Notes under the pieces: generated by a model
What the model was told of the DNA's origin: nothing
The model's database searches: none
Seen by the model: only the letters and a program-made list of their open reading frames with translations
Program-made: the position numbers and the translations under genes
In this document: one piece after another, positions 2,834-59,573 of the stretch
Position numbering within the stretch: the stretch's first letter is position 1
How the letters are laid out: each line of letters starts with the position of its first letter
Assembly: GCA_035402765.1 (NCBI GenBank)
Contig: DAONDX010000005.1
Location: forward strand, 7,304 to 71,303
Direction of reading: 5' to 3'
Origin: Candidatus Omnitrophota bacterium
GTDB lineage: Bacteria > Omnitrophota > Gorgyraeia > Gygaellales > Profunditerraquicolaceae
Length of the DNA stretch: 64,000 nucleotides

Positions 2834-5071
2834 ATGAAAAGAATTCTATTGTTTATCCTGCCCATATTAATCTTAGTTGCGCTTGGATTTGCTATTTCGG
2901 GCGTTATGCAAGCTCGTTTCACAGAAGATAAGCTTATGGATGATTTAAAAAGAAAAGCCAGGTCTGTGGATGAAGGCTTGGAATTATCAGCTAAGTATAT
3001 TCTTATTAACAATGATTTAAAGCAAGCCAACCGTTTAGTTGATAGCTTCCAGAAAAGAGAAAGGCTGCAAGGTTGTGTTATTTACGATAAAGATGGCCAG
3101 ATATTAGCGATTACTGAAAGATTCTCTGATTTTAAACAGAAAGAAAGGCCATATTTGAAAGATATCCTATCTTCTAAATCGCCGCGAGGAGCGCTGGAAA
3201 AGTTTAAAGAATACTCTGTATATAGCTACATTTTACCTGTCTTAAATGATGATGAGAGTGTATTAGGAATGGTAGAGGTAGTTTATGACACATCGTATAT
3301 GTTTACTACTTTAACTGAATTATGGAGAAAAATAAGCGTTACCTCCATTGCGCTTATCTTACTAATAGTTTTAACTGCCTTATTAATTCAGAGACAAATT
3401 TTTATTGTTCCGGTACGTAGGCTAACGCAGTGGTTTACGCATTTTCAAAGAGGAGAAACTGATAAATTGCGGCCGTTTGCTGAAAAAGGTGAATTTGGTA
3501 AGTTGATTAGTGAGGTAGAGCAGGTTGCCTTAAGCATTAGAGTAGCGCGTCGTACCATATCAGATGAAGCGCATGTGCGCTTGCAAAAAGAAGATCTTTG
3601 GACTGAAGCCAAGCTTAAAGATCTAATCCACGCAAAATTAGGAGAGAATTCTTTATTCGTGGTTTCTAATCGAGAGCCGTATATGCATGTTTTCGATGAG
3701 AATTTGGGTAAGGAGACATGCATAAGGCCGGCAAGTGGCGTGGTCACTGCGATACATCCAATACTTTCAGCTTGCGGTGGGACCTGGATTGCGCATGGCA
3801 GTGGTAATTCTGATAAAAAATTCGTTAACTCTAAAGATAAACTCGGCGTGCCTCCTGAGGATAACCGGTATATTCTTAAGAGAGTTTGGCTTAATAAGGA
3901 AGAAGAACAAGGTTATTATTATGGTTTTTCCAACGAAGGGTTATGGCCCTTATGCCATAATACACATACGCGGCCGGTTTTTAAAGAATCTGACTGGCGT
4001 ATGTATAAAGAAGTAAATCAGAAATTCGCAGACAGTATTTTAAATGAACTACCGGTAAGCAGCCCGTTTATATTTATCCAAGATTATCACTTTACTCTTT
4101 TGCCAAAGATGATCAAAGATAAACGGCCGGATGCAAAAGTAGCTTTATTCTGGCACATACCTTGGCCTACCCCTGAAGCTTTTATGATTTGTCCTTATCA
4201 GAATGAAATTTTAGAGGGCATGTTAGGATGTGATTTGATCGGTTTTCATGTTCAGAACCATTGCAACAATTTTTTGGATACCGCCAACCGTTTGCTTGAG
4301 TCACGCGTAGATACTGAAAAATTCAGTGTTGTGCGTTCGGGTAAGGAAACTTTTATCAGGGCTTTTCCTATCAGTATTGACTCGCATATTGGCGATGGTT
4401 CATTTAGAGTCGATCCTGTCAGACAGGTAGAGAAACTTAAGAAGGAGTTTGAGCTGAATGATGAAACTATTGTCGTGGGGGTGGATAGAATCGATTATAC
4501 TAAAGGCATAGTCGAGAAGATTTTAGCCGTCGATAGATTTTTAGATAAGTATCCTGAATATAAAAAGAAATTTGTTTTTATACAACTAGCCGCACCAAGC
4601 CGAACACATATTAAGCGTTATCATGATTTAATCGGGGAAATCGATGAATTAGTTGAAAAAATTAACTGGAAACATATAGATGGAAACTGGAAGCCAATAA
4701 TCTATCTAAAAAAGCATTTTTCTCAAGATGATATCCAGCCTTATTATAGGCTTGGTGATATTTGTATTGTTAGTTCGCTGCATGATGGCATGAATTTGGT
4801 GGCTAAAGAGTATGTTGCAGAGAAGGATGACTTATCCGGGGTGTTAATCTTAAGTCAATTCACCGGGGCAGCGCGAGAGCTTACCGATGCTATTTTGGTT
4901 AATCCATATTCAATTGAAGAGTTTGCGGATAGTATAAAATTGGCCATTCAGATGCCCAGGGAAGAGAAGGTGAGGCGTATGGTAAATATGCGTAAGGTGA
5001 TAGTGGAAAATAATATTTACCGCTGGGCAGCTAACATTATCAATGAGATGGTTGCATTAAAACAAATTTAA
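2834..5071 (+). CDS. otsA: membrane sensor (2 TM + periplasmic domain + HAMP) fused to trehalose-6-phosphate synthase (GT20)
   Basis: N-terminal ~260 aa: TM1 (ILLFILPILILVALGFAI), a periplasmic region, TM2 (ISVTSIALILLIVLTALLI), and a HAMP-like amphipathic segment (IVPVRRLTQWF...GEFGKLISEVEQVALSI). The C-terminal part aligns to OtsA motifs: LFVVSNREPY, GGTW, EGLWPLCH, VNQKFAD, IQDYHFTLLP, FWHIPWP, CDLIGFHVQ, VDRIDYTKGI, DGMNLVAKEYVA...LSQFTGAA...ILVNPY. Confidence 0.8.
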   Translation: MKRILLFILPILILVALGFAISGVMQARFTEDKLMDDLKRKARSVDEGLELSAKYILINNDLKQANRLVDSFQKRERLQGCVIYDKDGQILAITERFSDFKQKERPYLKDILSSKSPRGALEKFKEYSVYSYILPVLNDDESVLGMVEVVYDTSYMFTTLTELWRKISVTSIALILLIVLTALLIQRQIFIVPVRRLTQWFTHFQRGETDKLRPFAEKGEFGKLISEVEQVALSIRVARRTISDEAHVRLQKEDLWTEAKLKDLIHAKLGENSLFVVSNREPYMHVFDENLGKETCIRPASGVVTAIHPILSACGGTWIAHGSGNSDKKFVNSKDKLGVPPEDNRYILKRVWLNKEEEQGYYYGFSNEGLWPLCHNTHTRPVFKESDWRMYKEVNQKFADSILNELPVSSPFIFIQDYHFTLLPKMIKDKRPDAKVALFWHIPWPTPEAFMICPYQNEILEGMLGCDLIGFHVQNHCNNFLDTANRLLESRVDTEKFSVVRSGKETFIRAFPISIDSHIGDGSFRVDPVRQVEKLKKEFELNDETIVVGVDRIDYTKGIVEKILAVDRFLDKYPEYKKKFVFIQLAAPSRTHIKRYHDLIGEIDELVEKINWKHIDGNWKPIIYLKKHFSQDDIQPYYRLGDICIVSSLHDGMNLVAKEYVAEKDDLSGVLILSQFTGAARELTDAILVNPYSIEEFADSIKLAIQMPREEKVRRMVNMRKVIVENNIYRWAANIINEMVALKQI

Positions 5072-6950: not shown

Positions 6951-7622
6951 ATGGTAGAGATAATAAGAGCTAAAGAGCCATTTAAATTTTACACCAGATT
7001 ACATTTAACTGAATTAACCGGGTTAAGAGCCACTACTTTAAGTCAGCTTGGCAGCCTTATTAAAAAGGTATCCGGATCAAGTATCTATCACCACACTCAC
7101 AGATTTCTGCAGCAGCATCAGTATCTTTCTCCCGAGCCCCCGAATGATTTTGCTTACTGGGTAACTGAAGTCCTGGGTGAGGATGAGTTGGGAGAGAAAT
7201 TAGCCAGCATTGATACTATTCAATATTCTACCATTCGTAGTCTTAGGGATAAAATCGTTTCAACAATTGATGATTATCTTGCGCATAGCCCTTTTGCTAA
7301 ATTAAAGTTTGCTAAAAGCGGAGAGGAGTTCCACTTTATGAAATCAGTAAGTTTTATTCTTCCTTCCGGATATAGCGTGACTGATTTAAGGGAATTTGCG
7401 GATTCCTTGCGGAAAATAACCATTGATTCCATATATTTCCATATTTTTGAGGCACGTTTAAGGCTTGAACGCGAAGGGAATGATTTTTCCAATTGGATCG
7501 AGCATTCTTTAGGAGATGAGGAATTAGCAAGAGAAATCTCAAACCTTGATCCGTATACCCAGACATTAGAAAATCTCAGGCAGTCGATTTTAAGCATTGT
7601 TCAAAAGAGGACGGGTTCTTAA
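6951..7622 (+). CDS. hypothetical protein conserved within the trehalose operon
   Basis: 223-aa ORF tightly packed between otsB and treT. No motif recognised. Confidence 0.4.
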   Translation: MVEIIRAKEPFKFYTRLHLTELTGLRATTLSQLGSLIKKVSGSSIYHHTHRFLQQHQYLSPEPPNDFAYWVTEVLGEDELGEKLASIDTIQYSTIRSLRDKIVSTIDDYLAHSPFAKLKFAKSGEEFHFMKSVSFILPSGYSVTDLREFADSLRKITIDSIYFHIFEARLRLEREGNDFSNWIEHSLGDEELAREISNLDPYTQTLENLRQSILSIVQKRTGS

Positions 7623-8835: not shown

Positions 8836-8855
8836 TTAATTTGGTATACAAGGGT

Positions 8856-8945
8856 TCGGAAGTTTTTTCTTCCGGAGGATCTAGATGGTCGGGCCGCCAT
8901 CTTGCATGTTAGTGCAGGATGGCGTTTTTGTTTTATAAGGATAAA
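8856..8945 (+). promoter_or_regulatory. conserved leader/attenuator element, copy 2
   Basis: Hairpin CGGAAG...CTTCCGG. GGAGGA RBS. Mini-ORF 8885-8938 encodes MVGPPSCMLVQDGVFVL, with its first 18 nt identical to copy 1 (ATGGTCGGGCCGCCATCT). Hairpin CCATCTTGCA/TGCAGGATGG is followed by GTTTTTGTTTT. Confidence 0.55.
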
Positions 8946-47755: not shown

Positions 47756-49285
47756 TTAGCTTTCATGAGTAGATTTTCTAAAGCAGTGGATATAAAAGCC
47801 GTCGTTTGTTGAATTAACTACCCGGTTGAAATCTTTATTAAAACTATCGATTACTTTTTGTCCTGCCTGGCTATTGTCATTTCTTTCCCAGTTGCTGCCG
47901 ATTATCCAGATTAAATTATCCGCATTTTTAATTTTAGCTTTAGCGGTTTCGATGTTAATGAACCTACCTTTTTCCACAAAAGGCGTCTTAAAAGTATCAT
48001 GGAGGGCGCCATTGGGGAAAATAAAATAATGGGGGTACTTAAAGTTATAAAAGCTAAAGGCCGGGTATATCGAAAGATGGGAGATCAAATAAAGATCATT
48101 GGGCCGGCCTGATTTTTCCAGGAAGCTTATAGCAGATTTTATTTTTTCTTTAGGGGTTACCCCGATCCTGTGCTGCAGGAAACAAAGGTTAGTTTGCGCA
48201 TAATAATTAAAAAGCGCATAACAGAGTAAAAATAAAACAACGGCGATTGAAAATATTTTGGCCCATTTTTTTAAGTTTAAAATAGCAAAAGAAACAAGCA
48301 GATAGAATAAGGGAATAAAAATAATTAATCCGCGATCCAGCCAGATCGCAAGAATTGATCTGGAAAATAAAAAAGAAATTACTAGCCCAATAGTTAATAG
48401 GCTGAATCCGCACCGGTAAACAGGGTTATTCAGCAGCTCTTTTTTTAGGATAAAAATGTAGCCAAAAATAAATATTAAAAATAAATCGTAAAAAATATAC
48501 ACGCCCGTTGCGCAATTATAGCCCATTCCGAAATTTTCAAAAACGTACTTTAAGTTGAGCAGCGGCAGCGTGGGGATGGTATTCCAAAAGCCCTGTTTAA
48601 TAAACAGGTATTCTTTGGTAAAAGAGGGCAGCCAGTAACTGTAGATTACCAGAATAAAGCTGTAGCAGATTATAATCTTGCCAAAGCTGACTTTAAACAG
48701 TGAATAAATAAATTCTGCGCACAAAAGTAAAATAAAGAAATAAGATGAATACAAGCCCAGGATGGAAATTAGAGAAAACTTTAGCCATCCGGCTAGGTTT
48801 TTATTTTTTAGGAGGCTTAAAAAATAATAGATATTTAAGACTGCCAATAAACAGCTTAATATGTAGTGCCGCACTTCTTGAGAATACCAGATATGAAAAG
48901 GGGAGAGAGCGATTAAAGCGGTAGCTAAATATACTATTTTTTTATCGGTAATAATTTTTTTGAAATTGAAGGTAGCGATTACCGTAAAAACCCCGATGAT
49001 TACGGAAGGGAGCCTGAGCCAAAATTCATTCGCCGGAAAGATTTTAATCCAATAGTGTAAAAGAAAATAAAATAAGGGCGGTTCGATGAATTTTTGGTGT
49101 GTGGGGTGAAAAAAATCCCGGGCCGAGTAAAAAGAAATAATTTCATCATACCAAAGGTCATATTTGGCCAGCTGGTAAGTACGCAACGCCAGGGCAACGG
49201 CAATTATCAATAACAGGAAAGCGCCCTCTGCGGACAGCCGTTTGCGGATGGAACAATTAAGACGTTCAAGATTTAAATATTTCAT
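47756..49285 (-). CDS. GT-C membrane glycosyltransferase (GT39/GT83 ArnT/PMT-like)
   Basis: About 12 TM helices. First-loop YDLWYDEIISF contains the DE catalytic motif. Alternative start at 49321. Confidence 0.65.
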   Translation of the reverse strand: MKYLNLERLNCSIRKRLSAEGAFLLLIIAVALALRTYQLAKYDLWYDEIISFYSARDFFHPTHQKFIEPPLFYFLLHYWIKIFPANEFWLRLPSVIIGVFTVIATFNFKKIITDKKIVYLATALIALSPFHIWYSQEVRHYILSCLLAVLNIYYFLSLLKNKNLAGWLKFSLISILGLYSSYFFILLLCAEFIYSLFKVSFGKIIICYSFILVIYSYWLPSFTKEYLFIKQGFWNTIPTLPLLNLKYVFENFGMGYNCATGVYIFYDLFLIFIFGYIFILKKELLNNPVYRCGFSLLTIGLVISFLFSRSILAIWLDRGLIIFIPLFYLLVSFAILNLKKWAKIFSIAVVLFLLCYALFNYYAQTNLCFLQHRIGVTPKEKIKSAISFLEKSGRPNDLYLISHLSIYPAFSFYNFKYPHYFIFPNGALHDTFKTPFVEKGRFINIETAKAKIKNADNLIWIIGSNWERNDNSQAGQKVIDSFNKDFNRVVNSTNDGFYIHCFRKSTHES

Positions 49286-50516
49286 CAGATATTCTTTTGT
49301 GTTGGTTCGGGAAAGAATCATCCAAGCCAGCCAGGTGTTTTAACAAATAGAATATATCCAAGATATTGATTTTTTGGGAAAGATTTTGTTTTTCCCGGAT
49401 GTTTTTACCGCTGATAATAAAAATGGCATTTTCTTTGGTGTGAATGGGGCCGTTTTCAGTTTTTCCTGTTTTCCAGGCGGAGATGCCATGATCGCTGGCG
49501 ACTAAAATTACCCAATCTTCTGAAAGCAGGGGAAACATCTCGCCGATTTTTTTATCGATATATTTATAGATATTAGCGATAGTTTTTACCTTGGCTGGAG
49601 AGCTGTTATCAACAGGAAAATAGAGATGCTCAAGAATGTCCGGACCGCCTAGGTAGAGAGAGAGGAATTCTACCTGGGGGTCGTTGGAGATGATTTCTTT
49701 AGCAATTTCAAAGGGGTATTTTGTAATTGCGTAAATGATGGGAGGCAGTAATCCGGCGTCGATTACCAGAAAAGGTATATTTAAAGCCGGCTGAAAAGGA
49801 GATAATTTGTTTTTTTTGATTACTTTAGAAGCCATTTCCCGGATATCATTTTGCATATCATCCCTATATTTTTTGACCCGGTCCGCAGGCAGATTTAAAG
49901 GAAAACCGTTTTTCGACATTTCTTCGCGCAGTTTAAAGTAGTTGGGAGTAAACATGGCGTCAATTTTTTTACTATAATCGGCTGGAAAAATCAATTTTTT
50001 TTCATCAGTAAAATTAAATAATAAGTCGGGCATGTATTTTTTTAAAAAATACCAGGGGAGAGCCCACTGGGAAAGCATATAGCCGTCTATTTTCTCTATC
50101 GGCCAGCTACCTAAAAAAGCAATAAAAGCGCTCTTAACACCATGATCGCTTAATAAATTCCATAATGCGGGAACTTTGCGCTGCTGAGAAGAGCACATTA
50201 ACACCAGCCGTCCGTCAATTACGTTAACAAAACCCCGCATGCCGTGTTCTTCTGCGGATTTCCCGGTCAACATGCTTACCCATATTTCCTGCGACCAAAA
50301 TGACTCGGTAGCCGTTTGCCCGGCAACTCCATGCTCGATTAATTTTTTAAAGTTAGGCAACTCTCCGGATTCTATCAGCGGGTTAACCACATCCCAGCTT
50401 GCGCCGTCAATACCGATAAATAAAACCTTCTGAGAGGCATGAGCCGTACCAGGTGTTAAACTTAATAGGCTGATCAAGATTAAGACCAGAATAATTGTTT
50501 TTCTTTTTGCGTTCAT
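49266..50516 (-). CDS. secreted alkaline-phosphatase-superfamily protein (type I phosphodiesterase/nucleotide pyrophosphatase-like)
   Basis: Signal peptide. LFIGIDGASWD metal-site motif. Confidence 0.6.
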   Translation of the reverse strand: MNAKRKTIILVLILISLLSLTPGTAHASQKVLFIGIDGASWDVVNPLIESGELPNFKKLIEHGVAGQTATESFWSQEIWVSMLTGKSAEEHGMRGFVNVIDGRLVLMCSSQQRKVPALWNLLSDHGVKSAFIAFLGSWPIEKIDGYMLSQWALPWYFLKKYMPDLLFNFTDEKKLIFPADYSKKIDAMFTPNYFKLREEMSKNGFPLNLPADRVKKYRDDMQNDIREMASKVIKKNKLSPFQPALNIPFLVIDAGLLPPIIYAITKYPFEIAKEIISNDPQVEFLSLYLGGPDILEHLYFPVDNSSPAKVKTIANIYKYIDKKIGEMFPLLSEDWVILVASDHGISAWKTGKTENGPIHTKENAIFIISGKNIREKQNLSQKINILDIFYLLKHLAGLDDSFPNQHKRISDEIFKS

Positions 50517-51280
50517 CGGGATATCTCTTTTAAGGATTTAACATTTTGTAATGAATAAGACAGCTCATTCTCGGATAACTCTGATAAAAAATAATTTTTC
50601 CATCTTTTAGGTTTTTGATATTGGCTGCCGGGAATATACCGGATAGACTTTTTGGCATATAAAAAAGGCAGAGAGGTATCTATCCTTTTCACAAAACCTA
50701 ATTCTTTGATCAGGGATGCCTCCTGAAAATCATTGAGCCCCAGGCAGTGGTAGTTTTTATTTTTAGATACCAGTCCTTCATTTTTTAAGTGATTTAGGAA
50801 TTTAACCCTTTTCATTTTACGCAGACTTAAATTTTCTCTTAATCTCAAGCCAAAAGGTATCCCGATAGTAGAAATTCTGGGTTCTCGCAGGAACTGTTGA
50901 TAACAATAGAGTATTTGCTTTAAGTCTTTCCCATGAACAACGGCCTGGATTTTTAGGGAGGTATTCATTTTAGTGATGGAATCGCAAAATTTTAAAGTTG
51001 AATAAACCGTGGATTTGGTATCACCCGGTTTATCCGGGGCGACTACTTCATCAGGGTTGATGAGCTCAATCGCCCGAAAGAGATCACTAGGCGATACGGG
51101 CCTGCGTAATTCATAGCTGGAATTATCTAAAACTATGGATTTACCTGCTTGAGATTGATTTTTCAAAAAATTTCTATAGGGATCGCAGGCCACGACCAGG
51201 TGCGCCAGGGCCATTTCGAAATCGCTGTATTGAGAAAAAATATGATAATAGTTAACCGGACAGATTATTGCCAGGTCCAT
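50513..51280 (-). CDS. hypothetical protein
   Basis: 255-aa ORF, translationally coupled (overlapping) with both neighbouring genes. Confidence 0.4.
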   Translation of the reverse strand: MDLAIICPVNYYHIFSQYSDFEMALAHLVVACDPYRNFLKNQSQAGKSIVLDNSSYELRRPVSPSDLFRAIELINPDEVVAPDKPGDTKSTVYSTLKFCDSITKMNTSLKIQAVVHGKDLKQILYCYQQFLREPRISTIGIPFGLRLRENLSLRKMKRVKFLNHLKNEGLVSKNKNYHCLGLNDFQEASLIKELGFVKRIDTSLPFLYAKKSIRYIPGSQYQKPKRWKNYFLSELSENELSYSLQNVKSLKEISR

Positions 51281-52388
51281 AAAGACTCCCTAATTTTAAG
51301 GCAGCATATATTCTAAGCCAAGATAAACAGGCGGTAAAATTCGATAAAGTGTTTATATAATGATAGTTTACATTGTAACACATACAACTGACCGGAGCTT
51401 GTTTTTTGTGCGACAGGTTACCGGCATCCAGGATATTTCCTGAGCAATCGCCTTTTATCGCGCAATTCCAGATTTTCCCTTGAGGGGTTATGTGCAAGGC
51501 AAAATTGCCTATCCGGCAATCGATATTCTTTGGTGAAATAATATTTTTTTCTAAAAAGTCAGCGTAGGAAATCAAAAAAGTCCTTTTTACCGGATCAGTA
51601 GGCAATGTTTTTATATATTTTCTAAAAACATTGATTATCGGCAGCAACTCTTCTTTTTCGAGATTTTGGGAAAGGGAGGAGTTTTCATTAAACAATTCTT
51701 TTCTGCTTTCAGCGATGCCGATACCATATGAAAAATTTAATTTATGTTTTATACGGTTGCTTTTAACGAAAGAGAGGATCTCTTGGAAATTTCCGATATT
51801 GTATTGAGAGATAGTAGTAAAGAAGCCTAATTCTAAATAATTTGAATTCTCTTTGGTTAAATTTGCTAATAATTCAATGGTTTTCAGGGTAGATTGGAAT
51901 GCCCCCTGGCGCCCCCGCATTAGGTCATGCGTTGCGCCGACTCCGTCCAAACTGATGTTTAAGAATGTTTTATTCTGGTATCTTCTGTTCAACTTGCAGA
52001 TTAATTTAGAATCTTCATAAATTTTTTTAGGACAGGTAGCCGAGACCGGGATAGTGATAACCAGGGGTTTTAAGTGTTCCAGGCAGGCAGAATAAATATC
52101 TATTAAATCCGCCCGCAGGAAAGGGTTCCCCCCGGTAAGGGTAACCCAGATAATATTTTCTTTGGATATTTTTTTAATTACTTGCAGCCATTGCTGGGTG
52201 TTTAGTTCTTTTTTGCCGCGGCCATTTTCCCAGATGTTGCAGGTTTTGCACGCCGAGTCACATTTGAAGGTTAAGCTGAATACGCAAGAAAAGAAATAAC
52301 GGTGATTGTTCAGCCAGATAAAAGGAAGCTTGGACAGAAAAAATAATTTTTTTCGCAAATTTTGTTTAATCAAATTAGCCATTTCCAA
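51252..52388 (-). CDS. radical SAM protein with C-terminal SPASM/twitch-like Cys-rich domain
   Basis: CDSACKTCNIW (CxxxCxxC), GGNPFL. C-terminal CRIGNF...NCAIKGDCSGN...CMC. Confidence 0.7.
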   Translation of the reverse strand: MEMANLIKQNLRKKLFFLSKLPFIWLNNHRYFFSCVFSLTFKCDSACKTCNIWENGRGKKELNTQQWLQVIKKISKENIIWVTLTGGNPFLRADLIDIYSACLEHLKPLVITIPVSATCPKKIYEDSKLICKLNRRYQNKTFLNISLDGVGATHDLMRGRQGAFQSTLKTIELLANLTKENSNYLELGFFTTISQYNIGNFQEILSFVKSNRIKHKLNFSYGIGIAESRKELFNENSSLSQNLEKEELLPIINVFRKYIKTLPTDPVKRTFLISYADFLEKNIISPKNIDCRIGNFALHITPQGKIWNCAIKGDCSGNILDAGNLSHKKQAPVSCMCYNVNYHYINTLSNFTACLSWLRIYAALKLGSLYGPGNNLSG

Positions 52389-53772
52389 GCCGTTTAATTA
52401 ATAAATTTCCCAGGGCCATAAAATGATCCCCGGTATGAATTAAATCATATCTTAATATCGCGGTAATTAACTTAAAGACTTTTTTATAAAATGGATCGTT
52501 AAAAGCGGCGAGCAAGTGATAATTTTTATATAAAAGGTTGCTTTGATAATACATTTTAATTTTTAGGGAAGCTGGATAATCTAACCCGGAAACAACCGGT
52601 TTTATTTCTACGCATTGGCTGCTTTTTTCCCAATCCGCTCCGCCTTTGCGTTTTTCCGAGATTTGCTCCCAGATGGGAGTTTGGGGGTAGGCGATAAAAT
52701 AATTAAAGATCGCCGCATTCAAGCCGAGCTCCCGGGTTTTTTTTACGGTTTGGCAATCCTTTTGATAATTACTATAAGGAAGGCCCAGGATGAATTGGCC
52801 GATAACTTTTATTCCCGCTTTTTGCAGGTATTTGACAGTAGCGGTTATATCTTGAAGGGTCTCGCCTTTATTTAGATTTTCAAATACTTCTTGGTCCAGG
52901 CTTTCAATGCCGATGCTTATATATTCGCAGCCTGCTTTTTTCATGAGGCTGAGAAGATTAAAATTCAAGGTATCTGCCCGGAATCCATTTACGCATCCCC
53001 ATTTTAAATTCCAGGTATTTTTTAATAATGCTTCGCAAAACTCCGCAACCCTTTTTTCATCTAAAGTGAAATTATCGTCTTTTATCCTGAAATTCTTTAT
53101 CTGGTGTTTCTTTATGGCTGCTTGAAGCTCATCGATAACATTGGCGATCGTACGGCTGCGCCATTGGGGCCCGGATACTTTTGGCACGACACAATAGCTG
53201 CATTGGTATGGGCATCCTCTGCTGGTAACTAAAGGGTAGGACTTGATACCTTGTCTCTTAATTGAATCGAAAACTTCATAGTTCGGATAGGGGAGAGCGT
53301 CCAAATCTTTGATAAAAGAGTATTGGGTATATTTTATTTGGCCGGCGTATTTATAGACAATGCCTTCCACCTCATCCAGGGATTGCTGGCCGGCCAACGC
53401 TTTGACTAATTCTAAGAAAGAATTTTCTCCCTCGCCAATTATCCCCGCGTCGAAGATCGGGTATTGTTTGATAAAATCTTCTTTTAGTAAAGTTACTCCC
53501 GGTCCGCCGCCAACGATTATTTTACTTTTATCATGCTGTTTGATGATCCTGGCAATTTTAACGGCTTCCGGTAAAGTAGCCGTTTTTATGGAAATTCCGA
53601 TGATTGGTGAAGAAATAGCTTTTAGCCGGGATAGAAAGTTTGCAGGATAATTATTAAAATCGATTATTTCCGGATCGAATCCTTTAGAAATTAACGCCCC
53701 CGCCAAATACCCCAGGCCGGTATTTAAGCCTTCCAGGGTGCCTTTAGGGTCAATGAGAGTGATTCTTAGCAT
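52375..53772 (-). CDS. B12-binding domain radical SAM protein (class B)
   Basis: N-terminal Rossmann-like B12 domain, SRGCPYQCSYCVV. Confidence 0.8.
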   Translation of the reverse strand: MLRITLIDPKGTLEGLNTGLGYLAGALISKGFDPEIIDFNNYPANFLSRLKAISSPIIGISIKTATLPEAVKIARIIKQHDKSKIIVGGGPGVTLLKEDFIKQYPIFDAGIIGEGENSFLELVKALAGQQSLDEVEGIVYKYAGQIKYTQYSFIKDLDALPYPNYEVFDSIKRQGIKSYPLVTSRGCPYQCSYCVVPKVSGPQWRSRTIANVIDELQAAIKKHQIKNFRIKDDNFTLDEKRVAEFCEALLKNTWNLKWGCVNGFRADTLNFNLLSLMKKAGCEYISIGIESLDQEVFENLNKGETLQDITATVKYLQKAGIKVIGQFILGLPYSNYQKDCQTVKKTRELGLNAAIFNYFIAYPQTPIWEQISEKRKGGADWEKSSQCVEIKPVVSGLDYPASLKIKMYYQSNLLYKNYHLLAAFNDPFYKKVFKLITAILRYDLIHTGDHFMALGNLLIKRLGNG

Positions 53773-55076
53773 GTTGTTTTTTGAATATCCGATATTAAAA
53801 TTTTATATTTACCGTGTTTAGTCAAAGGTAAGTCTTGGACCAATTGGACAGTAACTTCAATTTTTTCCCGGAGAGCTTCCTGGATCCTGACGGCAATTTC
53901 TTTTTTAAACGTTTCATCGATATTTCTGCGCGCCACTATGAATACGATAAATTTATCATAGTCTTTTTGGATTATTTTATAGCGGTAAATTTTTTCCGTA
54001 AATTCGTCGGTATTAAAATAACTGTCCTTTTGGATGCTATCTAAAACTTGACGGGGGGAAATAAGCTTACCTGAAGGGAGGATAACAAAATCGTCATTGC
54101 GGCCTTCGATTTCCAGGATCTTAGAGAATTCTCTGCCGCATTTACATTTTGTTTTTGGCCCCCGGATACCAATGTCTCCGGTGGCATAACGGATAAGCGG
54201 CATGGCTAAATTGAATAAAGAGGTAATTACAATCATGCCGCGTTCTCCGGGCTGCGCGGGAGTCTGGTCATCTTTGAGAATTTCTACGATTAGGTAGTCA
54301 TCGTCAACATGGTATCCGCCTCCTTGAGGGCATTCCCAGGCGATCCTGGTAAATTCAGATAATCCGTATTCATCTAACAGCCTGCAGTGGAAGGTGGCTT
54401 CCAGGAATTCCCGCATTTGGCGGGTGACTGTTTCGCCGTGGGTAATAATGAGCCGGGGTCTGATCGGCAGTGAGTTCTTTTTGACTTCTTTAGCGATGGA
54501 GTATAGGGTAGAAGGAAAACAATGTATGACCGTGGGTTTCATTGAAATTAATTTTTTAATTTGGGTTTCCACCGGTTCAGTAAAAAGAATCAGGTTTTTT
54601 TTCATTAAGCCCAGATGCTCCCAGAGTTTTTTCTTTTCAAAAGGTTTATACCAAAAGTATGCCATCCTGTCCCAGGGCTTAAGCTGATGTATAAAAAAAG
54701 CCCGCGCATAAATGGCCTCAACATAATCGTAATTTTGCAAGTCATAATAAGTTACCATGGGGATGCCGCTGGAACCCGAGGAGTCTTTTTTGATACACTT
54801 TTTGACCGCTGTTCCTTGAGCGATAAAGTCCGGCAGGTTAGCTACCACCAGTTCATTATTGATAATAGGCAGCAGTTTTAAATCTTCTATTCCTTTGAAT
54901 TTATCAGGATCAAGGTTGAGTTTATTGAATAGATGATGATAAAAATTAACGTTCTTTCCAGCATAGCGCAAAATAAACCGTAATTTTAAGTTTTGGAATT
55001 TATTCAACCGGTTAAAATCCCACCACTGTTGTATAAAAAAAGCCTTGATTAAAAAATAGAATTTTCTGATTATCAT
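53766..55076 (-). CDS. phenylacetate-CoA ligase family adenylating enzyme (PaaK/CapK/F390-synthetase-like)
   Basis: SSGSSGIPMVTYYD P-loop-like AMP-binding motif. YATGDIG and KHGKYK C-terminal lysine. 436 aa. Confidence 0.7.
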   Translation of the reverse strand: MIIRKFYFLIKAFFIQQWWDFNRLNKFQNLKLRFILRYAGKNVNFYHHLFNKLNLDPDKFKGIEDLKLLPIINNELVVANLPDFIAQGTAVKKCIKKDSSGSSGIPMVTYYDLQNYDYVEAIYARAFFIHQLKPWDRMAYFWYKPFEKKKLWEHLGLMKKNLILFTEPVETQIKKLISMKPTVIHCFPSTLYSIAKEVKKNSLPIRPRLIITHGETVTRQMREFLEATFHCRLLDEYGLSEFTRIAWECPQGGGYHVDDDYLIVEILKDDQTPAQPGERGMIVITSLFNLAMPLIRYATGDIGIRGPKTKCKCGREFSKILEIEGRNDDFVILPSGKLISPRQVLDSIQKDSYFNTDEFTEKIYRYKIIQKDYDKFIVFIVARRNIDETFKKEIAVRIQEALREKIEVTVQLVQDLPLTKHGKYKILISDIQKTTC

Positions 55077-55087
55077 TTTTTGCGCCT

Positions 55088-55987
55088 TTATTGTTTAGTG
55101 GTATTAATTGCCGGCCACTTAAGCAGATCCCTGCCCCGGAAATTATCGCATAGCCCCAACATTAAAGCGTATGCTTCGATAAGCATTAATAAAATTATTG
55201 AAACTACCTTGGTTAAATTCAGATTATGCCGAAGCAGGAATTTATGCCAAATTTTAAGGTCGCGGGTCGAGGCCCGGTAGTTTCTTTTTAAAGAATAATT
55301 AATATATTGCGCTGAAATCCTCCTTCTTTGGGATAAGTATTCTTTCCAGCTCAGCGGAACGCGGGTGTAAACATGCTTAGAAGGCAGATACTGGATTTTA
55401 AGCCCGCTTTTTGAAACCAGTTCTTCGATAATTAGATCATCTAAGCCTACCAACGGTAAATTAATGAATCTTTTTTTGAATCCGATTACCTCACTTATTT
55501 TAGGTTTGATTAAAGACAACTGGTGATGTAAGTCCCACAGAGTATTGATGATTCGTCTTAGAGTAGCTGAAGGGATGCGTTCTGGGTCCAGAGGCCCGAT
55601 GCGTGGACCGATCATTCCGATCTCAGGATTCTCGGCTAGAGCGCAGGTGAGATTTTTTAATACATCCTCACCGAGAATAACATCCATGTTAGATATAATG
55701 CAGAAGTCATACTTTGATTCTTTCAGGAATAAATTTATGGCATTGATTTTGCCGATTCTTTGAGGGTTGCAGATTATTTTACAATCCAAAAATCCGGCCT
55801 GGTTTATCTCAAGTTGCAAGCGCTCTTGATCAGCCGGTGATAATTCGTCAAAAATGAAGTAAATTTGAAGAGGAATATTCTGATCGAATAAACGGATATT
55901 TTTCAAAAAGCTTTCGAAGAATTTAGGGAAATTATTAACTTCTAGATAACCGATAACACCTATGCTTATGCCGTTGTGAATATTCAT
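55088..55987 (-). CDS. family 2 glycosyltransferase
   Basis: GT-A fold motifs. DxD-like ISNMDV. About 300 aa, consistent with a polyprenyl-phosphate sugar synthase. Confidence 0.7.
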   Translation of the reverse strand: MNIHNGISIGVIGYLEVNNFPKFFESFLKNIRLFDQNIPLQIYFIFDELSPADQERLQLEINQAGFLDCKIICNPQRIGKINAINLFLKESKYDFCIISNMDVILGEDVLKNLTCALAENPEIGMIGPRIGPLDPERIPSATLRRIINTLWDLHHQLSLIKPKISEVIGFKKRFINLPLVGLDDLIIEELVSKSGLKIQYLPSKHVYTRVPLSWKEYLSQRRRISAQYINYSLKRNYRASTRDLKIWHKFLLRHNLNLTKVVSIILLMLIEAYALMLGLCDNFRGRDLLKWPAINTTKQ

Positions 55988-56004
55988 TTAGGAGCGTTAA
56001 AGTT

Positions 56005-57360
56005 TTAATAAGGCGTAAAATCAACTATGGGAAATACCTCTTGATATAAATCCGCGTTTTGGAACTCTAACAAGGTTATTGGCCAGGAGTATGGCAATCC
56101 AAATACGGTATCAAATTTCTTAGTGACGAAACTTACTAAAATGGGCACGACATTATCTTTTTCAGCAAGCCGTTGAAAAAATGCGCGGTTGATTTTCATA
56201 AGTAGAATATAAATAGCCCATCTTGATAATTGCGGCTGAAAAACAAGCTTTGCGTAGCGCTTGTTTCTTAAAATATCAATTATTTTATCTAAAACGGCTT
56301 CTTCCATGGCTAAGGATAATTTGTTTTGCCTGCGTTGAGTATAAATACCCCCGAACCTAAAAACCGGTAAATTAACCGGGATTTTATTCTTTACGATAAA
56401 TTCAACCAGCTCTTGGCGGAGAGCATCAAATTTATTAAATATCCTTTGGTTGGAATTGAAATATTCTCCGATATCCTGCATGATCATTTCGATATCCGTG
56501 ATAATTTGTTCTCCGAAATTGTTCAAAACCTCAGGTTCCAGATAAATAGACTTGAAATTTACTCCCTGGATGAACTTATTTTTAGCGGTGAAATCTAAAA
56601 TGGGGTGGATTTGACTGCGGTTTATGCCTTGGACAACCGTGGTATGCAGCGTAGCTTTAAGGCCTAAAGCGGCGATATTCTCCAGGGCTTGCAATTTTAA
56701 ATTTAGTTCGCCAGGGTTATCCCTTAATAGCGCATAAGTTTTAGGATCGAATCCGTCAAAAGATAAAAAAATAGTTTCTAACCCGGAATCTTTTAAACCC
56801 TGCAGGAAATTTTTGTCCGCCAATTTCAGGCCGTTGGTAAAAACTACCGGGGTATTACCTGATTTTTTCGTAGCTTCAATTATTCCCCTCAGGTTGTTGT
56901 GTAAGGTCGGTTCTCCTCCGAAGAGGATGATGGATTTATTTTTGTTACGGATTTTACCCAAAAAACTTATAAAATTATTAAAGTTAAAATCCGGTAACTT
57001 ATCCTTATCCCGTTCGTAGCATATTTTACAGTTTGTATTGCAGGTTTTATTTACAAAGAAAAGGAAGGAAGGTATTTCCTCCCAATTAATGATATCTTCA
57101 AAGGTAAATTTTTCCTTCCCCAGTTCTACTTTTAACTTTGGCCAGTTTCTAGGAAGGAATTCTTTTTTCCATTGTCCGGGGTAGCCGTTTTTGGAAATAA
57201 TTCTTTCGAAATCTTTGTTTTCAGCCGGGCAATGCCCCGCAAAACGCAGGTATTTATCCTTGTGGAAGGCAGCGGGGGCTAACCGCAGGCAGGATGGGCA
57301 GAAAGAAGCTCCCTTAAGATTTATTCCTGAATCGGCGTAAGTTTTAGTTGAAGTTGACAA
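56005..57360 (-). CDS. radical SAM protein
   Basis: CNTNCKICY (CxxxCxxC). N-terminal Cys pairs (CPSC...HCP) are zinc-ribbon-like. Confidence 0.75.
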   Translation of the reverse strand: MSTSTKTYADSGINLKGASFCPSCLRLAPAAFHKDKYLRFAGHCPAENKDFERIISKNGYPGQWKKEFLPRNWPKLKVELGKEKFTFEDIINWEEIPSFLFFVNKTCNTNCKICYERDKDKLPDFNFNNFISFLGKIRNKNKSIILFGGEPTLHNNLRGIIEATKKSGNTPVVFTNGLKLADKNFLQGLKDSGLETIFLSFDGFDPKTYALLRDNPGELNLKLQALENIAALGLKATLHTTVVQGINRSQIHPILDFTAKNKFIQGVNFKSIYLEPEVLNNFGEQIITDIEMIMQDIGEYFNSNQRIFNKFDALRQELVEFIVKNKIPVNLPVFRFGGIYTQRRQNKLSLAMEEAVLDKIIDILRNKRYAKLVFQPQLSRWAIYILLMKINRAFFQRLAEKDNVVPILVSFVTKKFDTVFGLPYSWPITLLEFQNADLYQEVFPIVDFTPY

Positions 57361-57550
57361 GTCTATCCTTAAAGAGGCTTTAATTTTTTTTACAACCGGA
57401 GGATTTATTTATATCCGGCAGTTTAATTCCATCTAGTTATAATGTTACTTAGATAAGGTGTTTATCCGACTCCTGGCTAGCGGCGGGTTTTTGTTGATAT
57501 ATGAAATAATCCGGTTTCAGGAGGGGGAAATTCTGCAATTTGAGCCAAGT

Positions 57551-58438
57551 TTAGCGCGCATTTATCTGATCTTCTAACGGAATAGCTGTAGGTGTAAAGT
57601 AAAAGCTTTCGATAATGCCAACTCCGGTTTTAGAAAATTCAAAATTGATAAACTTATTTATGTCGCTTTGGGCAGGATCTTTTACCACTTGCTTGAGCAC
57701 ATTCAATAGGACTGTTTTTTCTTTTCCATCTTGATCAACAATAGTCAAAAAATCAATATTGATGAAATCTTTTTTAGAAATTAATCCGGTTTTTGCTCCG
57801 ATCACTCCCAGGCCCAGAGGATCATTTTCAACTTTTTGGATTACCTCTTCATCGGTGGCTGCTAATTCCGTGCGGGCAATATCATCGCCTCCTAAAAGGA
57901 TTTTTAAGAATTCTAAATCCTGAGAATTAGTTGTTTGTTTGGCGTAGATATTAATTTTGCCATTTACCTGGGGGTTTATTTCCTGCCATTCGTTTATTTC
58001 TCCCGAGAGGGCTCTTTTTAATGTATCCCACTCTACTTTTTTAGCAGCGGCGGTTTTGTGAACGATAAAGTTGACTCCTGAATAAGCTAACTCCAAAATT
58101 TTAGCATTCGGAAATTTCATCAACAGTTCCATGGATTCTTCAGGGTTAAGCGTCCTGGATATATTTGCGATATCGCAGCTGCCGTCTAGTAAATTTTTAA
58201 ATCCTTGGGTTGAGCTGGTGCTTTTAACCTGAATTTTTATTTCGGGGTTGGTTTTAGTAAATTCTTCAGCAAATAGAGAGGTAAAATCCAACATGGCCAG
58301 CGAACCATCGATATTAATTGTTGTTTCCTGAGCCAGGAGTTTTCCGGTAAAGGAGTTTTCTTTAGCCGGCAGGAGGAAGAGCATTAAGAATGAAATTAAA
58401 ATTATACTTAATTTTTGTCTATGCATGGTTATTCCCAT
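57551..58438 (-). CDS. periplasmic substrate-binding protein, PstS/PBP-like
   Basis: Signal peptide. TSSTQGFKNLLDGSCDIANISR resembles the PstS-family binding-site segment. Low certainty. Confidence 0.35.
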   Translation of the reverse strand: MGITMHRQKLSIILISFLMLFLLPAKENSFTGKLLAQETTINIDGSLAMLDFTSLFAEEFTKTNPEIKIQVKSTSSTQGFKNLLDGSCDIANISRTLNPEESMELLMKFPNAKILELAYSGVNFIVHKTAAAKKVEWDTLKRALSGEINEWQEINPQVNGKINIYAKQTTNSQDLEFLKILLGGDDIARTELAATDEEVIQKVENDPLGLGVIGAKTGLISKKDFINIDFLTIVDQDGKEKTVLLNVLKQVVKDPAQSDINKFINFEFSKTGVGIIESFYFTPTAIPLEDQINAR

Positions 58439-58440
58439 CC

Positions 58441-58683
58441 TTAATCAGCTACTGGTTTATTAAAGTAACTGATTAATATTGTGCCATAATCAGGTTTATT
58501 TGTCAATAATTCTATTAATTGTTTTGCGGCTGTTTTATGGGCCAAACTGCTGTTTTTTTGATCGTTTGGGAATAATTTAATTTTTAGCCCGGAGATACCG
58601 GTTGGACGGTTTTTATATACCAAACGGATAGATGATCGGCTTAAATTTGTTAATCGAATTCTAATTTTTAAATTTTCAGCCAC
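58441..58683 (-). CDS. small hypothetical protein (first gene of the minus-strand operon)
   Basis: 80-aa ORF abutting the next gene. No motif recognised. Confidence 0.3.
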   Translation of the reverse strand: MAENLKIRIRLTNLSRSSIRLVYKNRPTGISGLKIKLFPNDQKNSSLAHKTAAKQLIELLTNKPDYGTILISYFNKPVAD

Positions 58684-58928: not shown

Positions 58929-59573
58929 GTGAGAGATCTCCCACCCCATAAAAAAAATATTTCTCAAAAACTCATCAGGCATGTTAAGCAGCTGCGGCAA
59001 TGCCGGAAGTGCCGGGAAATGTATCCTCCGGTAGTTAGCGGGGGGGCGGTAGTCAGCAAAGTTTTATTGGTGGGGCAGGCGCCCGGGGATAAAGAACCTA
59101 AGCTTGGCCGGCCTTTTGCCTGGACCGCGGGGAAAACTCTTTTTGGCTGGTTTAACCAAGCCGCGGGAATAAGCGAGGAACAATTTCGCGCTTCTATATA
59201 TATGGTTGCTGTCTGCCGTTGCTTTCCCGGGAAAAATCCTGAAGGCGGAGACCGGGTGCCTTCGCCGCAGGAAGTATCAAGGTGCTCCGTTTGGCTTAAA
59301 CGTGAGTTTGATATTTTACATCCCACTTTAGTAATCCCGGTCGGTAAGCTGGCAATTTCTCAATTTCTTCCATTACAAAAACTTGATCAAATCATCGGGC
59401 GCCGGTTTAAAGTTACTTACGCCGGGCATAACCTTGATCTTATTCCTTTGCCCCATCCTTCAGGAGCTTCTCCTTGGCATCGCCAAGAGCCGGGTAAGCG
59501 CCTGCTCAAGAAAGGTCTAAAACTTATTGTTAAACATAAGTCTTTTAATTTTAAAAAAGGCAGTACAATATGA
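58929..59573 (+). CDS. uracil-DNA glycosylase superfamily protein (family 4-like, Fe-S)
   Basis: CRKC...CRC Cys ligands, GQAPG motif A, LPHPSG motif B. Start codon uncertain (GTG). Confidence 0.65.
   Translation: MRDLPPHKKNISQKLIRHVKQLRQCRKCREMYPPVVSGGAVVSKVLLVGQAPGDKEPKLGRPFAWTAGKTLFGWFNQAAGISEEQFRASIYMVAVCRCFPGKNPEGGDRVPSPQEVSRCSVWLKREFDILHPTLVIPVGKLAISQFLPLQKLDQIIGRRFKVTYAGHNLDLIPLPHPSGASPWHRQEPGKRLLKKGLKLIVKHKSFNFKKGSTI

Follow-up and report, generated by a model that had tools for sequence, protein, structure and literature searches.

What is a guanine transglycosylase doing in the middle of a bacterial operon whose other products appear to be directed at the cell envelope? The question is raised by a block of minus-strand genes in the genome of a Candidatus Omnitrophota bacterium (GTDB lineage Bacteria; Omnitrophota; Gorgyraeia; Gygaellales; Profunditerraquicolaceae; NCBI GenBank assembly GCA_035402765.1, contig DAONDX010000005.1). 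The DNA analyzed, called the window in what follows, is a stretch of 64,000 nucleotides (nt) covering positions 7,304 to 71,303 of the forward strand of that contig. A preliminary description, made from the sequence alone, had recognized ten genes between window positions 47,756 and 58,683, among them three radical SAM (S-adenosylmethionine) enzymes, an adenylating enzyme and two glycosyltransferases, and had left the product of one gene, at 50513-51280, as hypothetical. That protein of 255 amino acids (aa) is identified here, by profile, fold and tblastn comparisons, as a homolog of the DpdA3 family of transglycosylases, which share the fold of tRNA-guanine transglycosylase (TGT). In the one paper found that names the subfamily (PMC10516641), DpdA3 is a viral enzyme, credited with the complete replacement of guanine by 7-deazaguanines. 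The position of such a gene in mid-operon opens a nucleobase or nucleic-acid reading of the locus, which an envelope hypothesis by itself does not explain.

A DpdA3-type protein in a bacterial operon

The family of the 255-aa protein has no Pfam model, and an exhaustive profile search yielded 3,272 representatives of it. A profile of 80 family sequences matches the solved DNA preQ0 insertase DpdA (7ui4; E=1.3e-3), and the alignment pairs H116-G117 with DpdA H181-G182, H178-x-L-G181 with the HLLG motif of DpdA, and D201-T-S with the nucleophile D256 (DpdA residues are given in 7ui4 numbering with an offset of 20). An independent alignment to the E. coli TGT places D201 on D264. Two further acidic residues, D52, which is invariant in the family, and D83, which is near-invariant (77 of 80 sequences), would be the counterparts of DpdA D95 and D130, having been matched to them by motif order rather than by alignment. 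All 4 invariant and 14 near-invariant family positions are kept in the window protein.

The predicted structure agrees with this assignment. An AlphaFold2 model made from the 80-sequence alignment is a confident TIM barrel (predicted local distance difference test score, pLDDT, 95.5); it replaces an earlier model made from 2 sequences, which was poor (pLDDT 57). The best 50 matches listed in a Foldseek search of the PDB are all TGT or DpdA, with E values of about 5e-8 and template modeling scores (query) of 0.53-0.66. In tblastn searches of phage genomes, the protein matches Cellulophaga phiST (E=2e-5), Campylobacter CP220 (E=2e-7) and Flavobacterium immuto_2-6A (E=1e-15) at 23-31% identity. 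These are the phages that define the DpdA3 subfamily, and the immuto_2-6A gene is annotated as a "DNA guanine transglycosylase" and lies among QueD, QueE, FolE and QueF. The protein also matches phrog_19058 and phrog_20335. Within the family it forms a separate long branch together with its sole close homolog (P0002), and its isoelectric point is not separable from those of the phage DpdA3 proteins.

By the residues it retains, the 255-aa protein is best described as a DpdA3-type TGT-fold protein with an intact active site. It resembles viral DpdA3 in size (about 255-265 aa), in its minimal TGT-type TIM barrel, and in keeping the invariant residues and the nucleophilic Asp. In contrast to its viral relatives, the window gene is cellular and chromosomal, has no neighboring FolE, QueD, QueE, QueC or QueF, and is embedded through stop/start overlaps among genes for radical SAM enzymes, a ligase, glycosyltransferases and an alkaline phosphatase-superfamily protein. 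Thus fold, motifs and similarity are those of DpdA3, while the genomic linkage is not.

Two other family representatives have unusual architectures. In one (P0068), the DpdA3-like domain is fused to a C-terminal purine-nucleoside-phosphorylase-like stretch (PNP_UDP_1, E=2e-4), and in the other (P0128), the DpdA3-like gene is interrupted by an intein with an HNH endonuclease.

The operon and its conservation

The genes and gaps of the locus, in the order of the minus strand, are as follows, with the main basis of each assignment in parentheses:

58441..58683, minus strand: 80-aa open reading frame (ORF) with a GTG start, a doubtful gene (ORF list only)
57551..58438, minus strand: PstS-like periplasmic binding protein, its N-terminus hydrophobic and of signal type (PF12849)
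57361..57550, minus strand: intergenic gap of 190 nt after the binding-protein gene, a possible internal promoter
56005..57360, minus strand: radical SAM enzyme of the Zn-ribbon_HMPTM / Tes / GDGT-MAS / TrsS-like group, 451 aa (PF04055)
55088..55987, minus strand: GT2-like glycosyltransferase with one C-terminal membrane helix and D,D,D,QxxR-type motifs (sub-cut-off Pfam matches)
53766..55076, minus strand: PaaK/CapK-type adenylate-forming ligase (4r1l match, CapK_C)
52375..53772, minus strand: cobalamin-binding (class B) radical SAM enzyme, 465 aa (PF02310 and PF04055)
51252..52388, minus strand: radical SAM enzyme with a conserved Cys-rich, twitch-like C-terminus, 378 aa (PF04055)
50513..51280, minus strand: homolog of DpdA3-family, TGT-fold guanine/7-deazaguanine transglycosylases, 255 aa (profile, fold, tblastn)
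49266..50516, minus strand: secreted alkaline phosphatase-superfamily (AlkP) protein, phosphodiesterase / nucleotide-pyrophosphatase-like (PF01663)
47756..49321, minus strand: GT-C membrane glycosyltransferase, PMT_2 / ArnT-like (PF13231)

All ten minus-strand ORFs were found at exactly the coordinates given in the preliminary description. Its statement that the genes overlap by 4-29 nt applies to part of the junctions, since only five of them overlap and the rest are gaps. The gaps measure 2 nt between the 80-aa ORF and the binding-protein gene (from the ORF coordinates), 190 nt between the latter and the 451-aa radical SAM gene, 17 nt between this gene and the GT2 gene, and 11 nt between the GT2 and ligase genes. 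The overlaps that follow measure 7 nt (ligase and cobalamin-binding radical SAM genes), 14 nt (the two radical SAM genes; 8 nt, or a 1-nt gap, with alternative start codons), 29 nt (378-aa radical SAM and DpdA3-like genes), 4 nt (DpdA3-like and AlkP genes) and 56 nt (AlkP and GT-C genes; 20 nt with an alternative start). The tightly packed unit is therefore one of eight genes, running from 57360 down to 47756, and the binding-protein gene may have its own transcript. Neither the 190-nt gap nor the region upstream of the operon has an Rfam match at E<=1, so no riboswitch or leader was found there, and the folding of the gap is no better than that of shuffled sequences (z=-0.55).

The small protein that the preliminary description counted as the first gene of the operon is not supported. 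The 80-aa ORF starts with GTG, has no clear ribosome-binding site, no homologs and no Cys, and must for these reasons be regarded as unsupported as a gene; it has no match in Pfam, NCBIfam or PHROG, and gene calls include it in only 3 of the 5 public contigs spanning the region. Public gene calls agree for the other nine of the ten genes. The PstS-like binding protein of the same description is borne out by a match to PF12849 (PBP_like_2, E=2.9e-20), with a hydrophobic segment at residues 7-30; the TIGR02136 PstS-family model gives 105 bits against a cut-off of 206.6.

The exact sequence of the cobalamin-binding radical SAM enzyme is present in 13 public contigs. Six of these were read; over the length of the operon their identity to the window is 99.8-100%, and one of them is an NCBI metagenome-assembled genome (MAG) labelled Candidatus Omnitrophota.

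That these genes form a conserved operon, as had been proposed, is confirmed by a second metagenome contig (L007), in which the order GT2, ligase, cobalamin-binding radical SAM, radical SAM, DpdA3-like, AlkP and GT-C is the same as in the window. This contig begins at the GT2 gene, and the comparison covers the genes from GT2 to GT-C. The encoded proteins are 48-63% identical to those of the window except for GT-C (28%), and the DpdA3-like protein, at 52%, has diverged to the same degree as its neighbors. Short overlaps flank the DpdA3-like gene in both genomes, the 4-nt overlap with the AlkP gene being found in each. Because the seven-gene order is kept in an independent contig, the arrangement is more than chance. 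Directly downstream in L007 (8388-14338) lie genes for NTP_transf_5, ScmC, PqqD, a radical SAM-SPASM protein and another radical SAM protein, a SynChlorMet-type cassette for a ribosomally synthesized and post-translationally modified peptide (RiPP) that is absent from the window.

Part of the operon recurs elsewhere. Homologs of the 451-aa radical SAM enzyme, referred to below as Tes-like, adjoin a PMT_2 GT-C gene in three other loci: in L009 with PMT_2 only; in L072 also with GT2, another radical SAM, ABC-2 exporter, acyltransferase, DegT and FemAB-like genes; and in L073 also with a cobalamin-binding radical SAM enzyme (28% identical to that of the window), UbiA, GT2 and EamA. The window version would then be this core with a ligase, a third radical SAM enzyme, the DpdA3-like gene and AlkP added. 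The envelope-directed role suggested in the preliminary description is in line with these loci, where GT2, cobalamin-binding radical SAM, UbiA, ABC-2 exporter and sugar aminotransferase genes surround the pair, and with the precedent that VpsH sets for CapK-type ligases.

The radical SAM enzymes

The assignment of three radical SAM enzymes stands. The CxxxCxxC motif is present in all of them (C107-x3-C-x2-C, C187-x3-C-x2-C and C43-x3-C-x2-C in the 451-, 465- and 378-aa proteins, respectively), and PF04055 matches each (E=5e-15, 3.8e-21 and 1.3e-11, in the same order).

The 451-aa enzyme scores highest against the NCBIfam model for TrsS (112 bits, cut-off 490), followed by that for Tes (NF045702; 95.8 bits, cut-off 450). 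Its nearest solved structure is GDGT-MAS (7tol; E=1.3e-22, residues 13-273), and homologs carry PF23545 of the Zn-ribbon_HMPTM group. The two enzymes share an N-terminal Zn ribbon and a radical SAM core; however, the C-terminal 180 residues of the window protein are unrelated, and its gene has GT-C and GT2 genes as neighbors rather than genes of lipid synthesis. The protein has six Cys residues, namely C21, C24 and C44 of the Zn ribbon and those of the motif at 107-114, with none after residue 114. An identification as Tes was rejected on the score and on the lack of Cys for clusters beyond the radical SAM cluster. In another Omnitrophota genome, that of Candidatus Saelkia tenebricola (GCA_030765145.1; L008, 8451-11906), three Zn_ribbon_HMPTM radical SAM paralogs lie in tandem with two further radical SAM genes upstream; by these sequences, the family appears to be expanded in Omnitrophota.

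The 465-aa enzyme was correctly recognized as a cobalamin-binding, class B radical SAM protein, as PF02310 (E=7.6e-16) is found together with PF04055 and the C187 motif. Its top NCBIfam matches are HpnJ (154 bits, cut-off 578), PhpK (142 bits) and BchE (140 bits), all three- to four-fold below their cut-offs. The profiles thus point to the class and leave the predicted reaction type (methylation, ring contraction or other) unspecified.

The tail of the 378-aa enzyme had been called SPASM/twitch-like. The first half of this label fails, in that no SPASM domain is found at E<=10; the second half may hold, in that C291, C309, C335 and C337 are conserved in the L007 ortholog, with a fifth Cys displaced by one residue. 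Since these four C-terminal Cys are conserved, one twitch-like auxiliary cluster is plausible. The top NCBIfam matches (SkfB, NirJ, PqqE and similar) span only the N-terminal core.

The ligase, the glycosyltransferases and the exported enzyme

The proposal of a PaaK-like adenylating enzyme is upheld: the best solved structure is 4r1l (E=2.7e-27), and PF27533 (CapK_C) is on record for the exact protein. Its best NCBIfam scores, 127 bits for the DVU_1553 family and 124 bits for PaaK, are both under the cut-offs. The ligase is 63% identical to its L007 ortholog and 36% identical to a ligase encoded near a Wzx flippase in another locus (L010). A scan of viral contigs found no relatives of this CapK ligase; the phage GenBank matches to it are unannotated fecal contigs, and none is among the organisms matched by the DpdA3-like query. 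The closest described precedent is VpsH, which adds glycine to a lipid-linked Vibrio polysaccharide and thereby provides a case of amino-acid addition (PMC13463779). The window ligase is likened to VpsH and other CapK-like ligases by its PaaK-type fold, its CapK_C domain and a locus that contains glycan-handling membrane proteins. As a formal alternative, its substrate may be the 7-carboxyl or aminomethyl group of a 7-deazaguanine.

The GT2 assignment is less secure. The window protein falls under the Pfam cut-off (22.3 versus 23.3 bits), although its 50%-identical L007 ortholog has PF00535 at E<=1e-5. Weak sub-cut-off Pfam matches are to Glyco_trans_2_3, Glycos_transf_2 and Glyco_transf_21, and weak NCBIfam matches are to NodC and HpnI (HpnI 15.5 versus 310 bits). 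The residues D47, N100-x-D102, D183-D184 and Q220-R-R-R are common to the window and L007 proteins, and a transmembrane-like segment lies at 256-283. These motifs are presumably those of the D,D,D,QxxRW type of lipid-acceptor or processive GT2 rather than of the ArnC/GtrB type. In two of the public sequences (L003 and L004, namely ENA ERZ795026 and the NCBI MAG GCA_035354355.1), which are otherwise 100% identical over 9 kb, the gene is frameshifted by a 22-bp deletion (about 8089-8110 in L001 coordinates) in the conserved N-x-D region "NMDVILGED". Either the gene is dispensable in that population or one error is common to both assemblies.

Two membrane-side enzymes described from the sequence, a secreted AlkP-superfamily protein and a GT-C glycosyltransferase with a DE motif, are both well matched. 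The former has PF01663 at E=4.2e-22, a C-terminal Sulfatase match (E=5e-8), a signal-peptide-like N-terminus (segment 3-28, ending AHA-S) and the metal-site motifs GIDG and SDHG, and is 55% identical to its L007 ortholog. The latter has PF13231 (PMT_2) at E=3.6e-11, WYDE in the first loop after the first transmembrane segment and at least 9 hydrophobic segments, and is 26-28% identical to the PMT_2 gene products of L007, L009 and L073. A sequence search of PDB chains found no solved relatives of the GT2, AlkP or GT-C proteins.

The pairing of GT2 with GT-C had been taken to follow the logic of ArnC and ArnT. Like the ArnC/ArnT, GtrB/GtrV and Dpm1/PMT pairs, the window does have a GT2 and a PMT_2 GT-C with an acidic first loop in one operon, with periplasmic accessory proteins. 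However, the GT2 does not read as a polyprenyl-phosphate transferase of the ArnC/GtrB type; its motifs look more like those of D,D,D,QxxR(W)-type enzymes, and its weak matches are to HpnI, NodC and GT21. The ten proteins include no ArnA/ArnB/ArnD-like sugar-nucleotide enzyme domain, and the window adds three radical SAM enzymes, a CapK ligase and the DpdA3-like enzyme. The specific Arn analogy is not supported.

Genomic context of DpdA3-like genes

Most relatives of the DpdA3-like gene, including those on marine phage contigs, adjoin genes for 7-deazaguanine synthesis or import. A metagenome scan found 52 DpdA3-like loci, none of the window type; about 28 of them have Que genes, including most of the loci over 8 kb, and none has a homolog of the window ligase, GT2 or radical SAM enzymes. 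A scan of genome contigs with a narrow alignment gave one distant Clostridiales locus. The closest relatives with readable context (P0054, P0055, P0057 and P0059) are 30-36% identical to the window protein, and all are tied to 7-deazaguanine genes: P0057, the second-closest relative at 36% identity, is on a phage contig, and P0055 and P0059 are near GCHY-1. By contrast, FolE, QueD, QueE, QueC, QueF and YhhQ have no tblastn match in the 64-kb window or in L007.

Cellular copies are found in other settings as well. In L010 (5976-7440), the P0054 gene precedes a co-directional gene for a YhhQ queuosine-precursor transporter (TIGR00697, 55.7 bits, cut-off 50.95), and divergent genes upstream encode a DUF6541 membrane protein, the Wzx flippase and the CapK-type ligase; this looks like a cellular salvage-plus-insertion pair beside a glycan locus. 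The combination of absent Que synthesis genes with a specifically related CapK-type ligase was found only in the window, L007 (63% ligase identity) and L010 (36%). Two linear plasmids of Streptomyces, NZ_CP108712 (L070, 8222-14407) and NZ_CP020040 (L071, 8227-14406), also carry cellular DpdA3-like genes, in a conserved block with QueD, QueE, FolE, a 351-aa unknown protein, thymidylate kinase, DUF2797, a class I methyltransferase and NUDIX but no QueC. This block may serve the 7-deazapurine modification of DNA or the synthesis of a nucleoside natural product.

Relationship to described pathways

In agreement with the preliminary description, no described pathway matches the operon. None of the NCBIfam matches of the ten proteins comes near its curated cut-off, and none is an equivalog match for a capsule, O-antigen, cofactor, hopanoid, phosphonate or RiPP system. 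No description of such a gene combination was found.

A cellular enzyme of the TGT family, carrying the catalytic Asp pair and the His-Gly base-reading motif, also belongs to the bacterial Dpd system (DpdA-K; PMC10164549). In contrast to that system, the window has no DpdB ATPase, DpdC, DpdD-K helicase/nuclease genes or specific PADLOC match, and none lies in the flanks; the window protein is of the short DpdA3 type, without the large Ins8 insertion of DpdA.

The hopanoid pathway offers a different parallel. HpnG removes the purine from a ribosyl-lipid, a formal analog of a base-cleaving step, and HpnJ tops the NCBIfam matches of the cobalamin-binding radical SAM enzyme while HpnI is a weak match of the GT2. 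A Pfam scan of the operon proteins and ten other large ORFs of the window nevertheless found no squalene-hopene cyclase, HpnH or HpnG, and the TGT-like pocket keeps guanine-reading rather than adenine-reading residues. An Hpn pathway was rejected because the scores are low and the proteins scanned include no other Hpn members. A phosphonate pathway, prompted by the PhpK-like match of the same radical SAM enzyme, a weak PhnA-like match of AlkP and the PstS-like protein, was rejected because no phosphoenolpyruvate mutase is found among the ten proteins, and a defense system was rejected because PADLOC gave only generic radical SAM matches. The operon does not appear to belong to any of the Arn, Hpn, Tes, Dpd, phosphonate and RiPP systems, each of which has a defining feature that was looked for here and either not found or not clearly recognized.

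Possible functions of the operon

The reading favored here, tentatively and short of calling it probable, is that one conserved operon makes a heavily tailored lipid-anchored envelope glycoconjugate (a glycolipid or lipid-linked glycan), with the DpdA3-type enzyme recruited as an integral step. On the cytoplasmic side, a lipid acceptor would be glycosylated by the GT2, a membrane-tethered enzyme of the D,D,D,QxxR type, and the CapK/PaaK-type ligase would adenylate a carboxylate (for example, that of a uronic acid) and form an amide, in the manner proposed for VpsH. The cobalamin-dependent radical SAM enzyme and the other two would functionalize C-H bonds, for instance by methylation, C-C bond formation or rearrangement, and the DpdA3-like enzyme, through Asp201, would form or cleave the N-glycosidic link of a guanine-type base to a ribosyl carbon in a pathway intermediate. 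After flipping, GT-C would move a lipid-phosphate-linked sugar to a periplasmic acceptor, the secreted AlkP-type enzyme would process a phosphodiester or pyrophosphate linkage, and the PstS-like protein would bind a phosphorylated ligand.

Operon integrity argues for this reading, in that the seven-gene order with its overlaps around the DpdA3-like gene is kept in L007. The PMT_2 GT-C, the AlkP protein with its signal peptide and the binding protein point toward the envelope. In two differently organized loci (the window/L007 type and L010), a specifically related CapK ligase is encoded no more than a few kb from a DpdA3-like gene, which suggests a connection between the two. The window is also without Que genes, and it is ordinary chromosome rather than phage or defense island. 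Several observations weigh on the other side. We know of no role of a guanine transglycosylase in glycan or lipid synthesis, and the retention of every family-conserved residue argues for the ancestral nucleic-acid reaction rather than for a new substrate. The DpdA3-like gene of L010 is co-directional with YhhQ and not with the ligase, so that its adjacency to the ligase may be coincidental. The envelope core also recurs on its own, because tblastn finds nothing in L009, L072 or L073 that matches the DpdA3-like, CapK or AlkP proteins at E<=1e-3. The assignment of the GT2 is weak, one population has a frameshifted copy of its gene, and, with no protein reaching a curated family cut-off, every chemical step is inferred. 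The association of DpdA3 with envelope genes comes from two uncultured genomes and one looser case. A bolder form of the favored reading, in which the DpdA3-type enzyme was exapted to small-molecule or glycan chemistry and the envelope glycoconjugate carries, or is assembled through, a guanine- or 7-deazaguanine-ribosyl unit, is unlikely; as a possible route, the CapK ligase would join the carboxyl or aminomethyl group of the base to the glycan and the TGT-like enzyme would set the N-glycosidic bond.

The same observations can be read as those of a composite operon, in which an envelope module (Tes-like radical SAM, GT2, cobalamin-binding radical SAM, ligase, AlkP, GT-C and perhaps the binding protein) is transcribed together with an independent DpdA3-type insertase that exchanges guanine in the DNA or tRNA of the cell for a salvaged 7-deazaguanine of the preQ0/preQ1 type. 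This is the main alternative and is possible, if somewhat doubtful. It accounts better for the retained active site and the family-wide context than does the recruitment of the enzyme into glycoconjugate synthesis: the active-site residues and the base-reading H116-G117 are kept, and P0054, P0055, P0057 and P0059 are tied to QueD, QueE, QueC, QueF and FolE on phage contigs, to GCHY-1 or, in L010, to YhhQ. The Streptomyces plasmid copies likewise lie beside QueD, QueE and FolE, about half of the metagenome loci (some 28 of 52) have Que genes, and envelope loci with the same radical SAM/GT-C core do without a DpdA3-like gene. It accounts less well for the translationally coupled place of the gene in mid-operon between 29- and 4-nt overlaps, which is the same in L007, where the gene has diverged (52% identity) like its neighbors; moreover, the window has no Que synthesis or transporter gene, and no DpdB/DpdC-like partner or other DNA-handling gene was found, the PADLOC matches being generic radical SAM ones. 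The opposite division, in which the cytoplasmic enzymes (DpdA3-like, ligase, three radical SAM enzymes and GT2) form a new pathway for hypermodification of a guanine analog in DNA or tRNA, comparable to queuosine or archaeosine, with GT-C, AlkP and the binding protein as passengers, is improbable. In its favor, the radical SAM enzymes QueE and RaSEA, the cobalamin enzyme QueG, the ATP-dependent ligases QueC, ArcS and GluQRS, and glycosylation to mannosyl- and galactosyl-queuosine are all part of 7-deazaguanine pathways. Furthermore, a TGT-family enzyme is the defining insertion step (PMC10516641, PMC10164549), and known phages formylate or methylate dPreQ1. Against this, the Tes-like and cobalamin-binding types of radical SAM enzyme recur with PMT_2 and GT2 where no DpdA3-like gene is present, CapK-type ligases go with glycan loci and no relative was found in the scan of viral contigs, none of the 52 DpdA3-like metagenome loci has a ligase, GT2 or radical SAM homolog, and in each genome a 4-nt overlap couples translation of the supposed passenger AlkP to that of the DpdA3-like protein.

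Two further explanations start from the radical SAM enzymes. In membrane-lipid remodeling, the Tes-like and cobalamin-binding enzymes would alter lipid tails (by coupling or methyl branching, which has been proposed for the membrane-spanning lipids of bacteria), GT2, GT-C and AlkP would act on head groups, and the PstS-like protein would hint at control by phosphate limitation. GDGT-MAS as the best solved relative of the first enzyme, with Tes its second NCBIfam match, favors this idea, as do the matches of the cobalamin-binding enzyme to HpnJ, HpnR and a "lipid biosynthesis B12-binding/radical SAM protein", the resemblance of the GT2 to lipid-acceptor GT2 enzymes (HpnI, GT21), and the wide occurrence in bacteria of Tes homologs with putative functions (10.1101/2024.06.25.600576). 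Still, it seems quite improbable, since the scores are far under the cut-offs (Tes 96 versus 450 bits, HpnJ 154 versus 578 bits), no ether-lipid or glycerol-lipid gene is in the operon, and the DpdA3-like gene and the ligase are left unexplained. In addition, the similarity to GDGT-MAS ends at residue 273, and the 451-aa protein has no Cys for extra clusters; the structure study of GDGT-MAS reportedly found three [4Fe-4S] clusters and a rubredoxin-like iron. A RiPP cluster, with the 80-aa ORF or another small precursor peptide as the substrate of the radical SAM enzymes, was already held to be less likely in the preliminary description and is now very improbable, there being no PqqD or RiPP recognition element and no SPASM domain at E<=10 and no credible precursor. 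The top NCBIfam matches of the 378-aa enzyme are peptide maturases (SkfB, Nif11-class, ScmE), and the SynChlorMet-type cassette with its ScmC, PqqD and radical SAM-SPASM genes lies immediately downstream in L007. Nonetheless, the maturase matches cover the generic radical SAM core and are far under cut-off, the cassette is absent from the window, the window operon also has no peptidase or exporter, and the 80-aa ORF has neither Cys nor support as a gene.

The surrounding chromosome

The operon block is the sole minus-strand run of long ORFs in the window. Elsewhere, the window encodes an ammonium transporter, glutamine synthetase III, glutamate synthase, CTP synthase and a resistance-nodulation-division efflux system, all ordinary chromosomal functions, and it is ordinary chromosome, neither phage nor defense island. 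The operon has a G+C content of 0.37-0.40, compared with 0.43-0.49 at 32-44 kb and 0.43-0.45 at 60-64 kb in the flanks; the region at 1-12 kb is equally low, and as a sign of horizontal acquisition the lower value is weak and ambiguous. A gene of the uracil-DNA-glycosylase family (58929-59573, plus strand; PF03167 on record) is the divergent neighbor of the operon, 245 nt from the 80-aa ORF, and has no PADLOC match. Matches to the nhaA-I Na+ riboswitch (RF03057) above the gathering score lie at 2720-2786 and 8852-8902, both on the plus strand. The first is just upstream of a gene at 2834-5071 for trehalose-6-phosphate synthase (GT20), whose product has a weak, sub-cut-off dCache-like N-terminal region, and this placement suggests sodium-responsive control of osmolyte synthesis.

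Implications

The association of a DpdA3-type gene with envelope genes would be surprising to specialists in 7-deazaguanine biology. A cellular copy of DpdA3 could have either of two meanings. One is that Omnitrophota modify their own nucleic acids with salvaged deazaguanines, in co-regulation with the remodeling of the cell surface. The other is that the TGT fold has gained a substrate that is not a nucleic acid; exaptation of the enzyme to envelope chemistry, if true, would give the TGT/DpdA superfamily its first substrate of that sort and would reveal the first nucleobase-bearing envelope polymer of its kind. Either outcome would widen 7-deazaguanine biology.

The core of a Tes-like radical SAM enzyme and a PMT_2 GT-C, often with GT2 or a cobalamin-binding radical SAM enzyme, is an uncharacterized envelope-modification module. 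A caution that follows is that bacterial "Tes homologs" are not safe markers of tetraether lipid synthesis. Omnitrophota, the phylum in which the module occurs, are ultra-small and possibly host-dependent bacteria.

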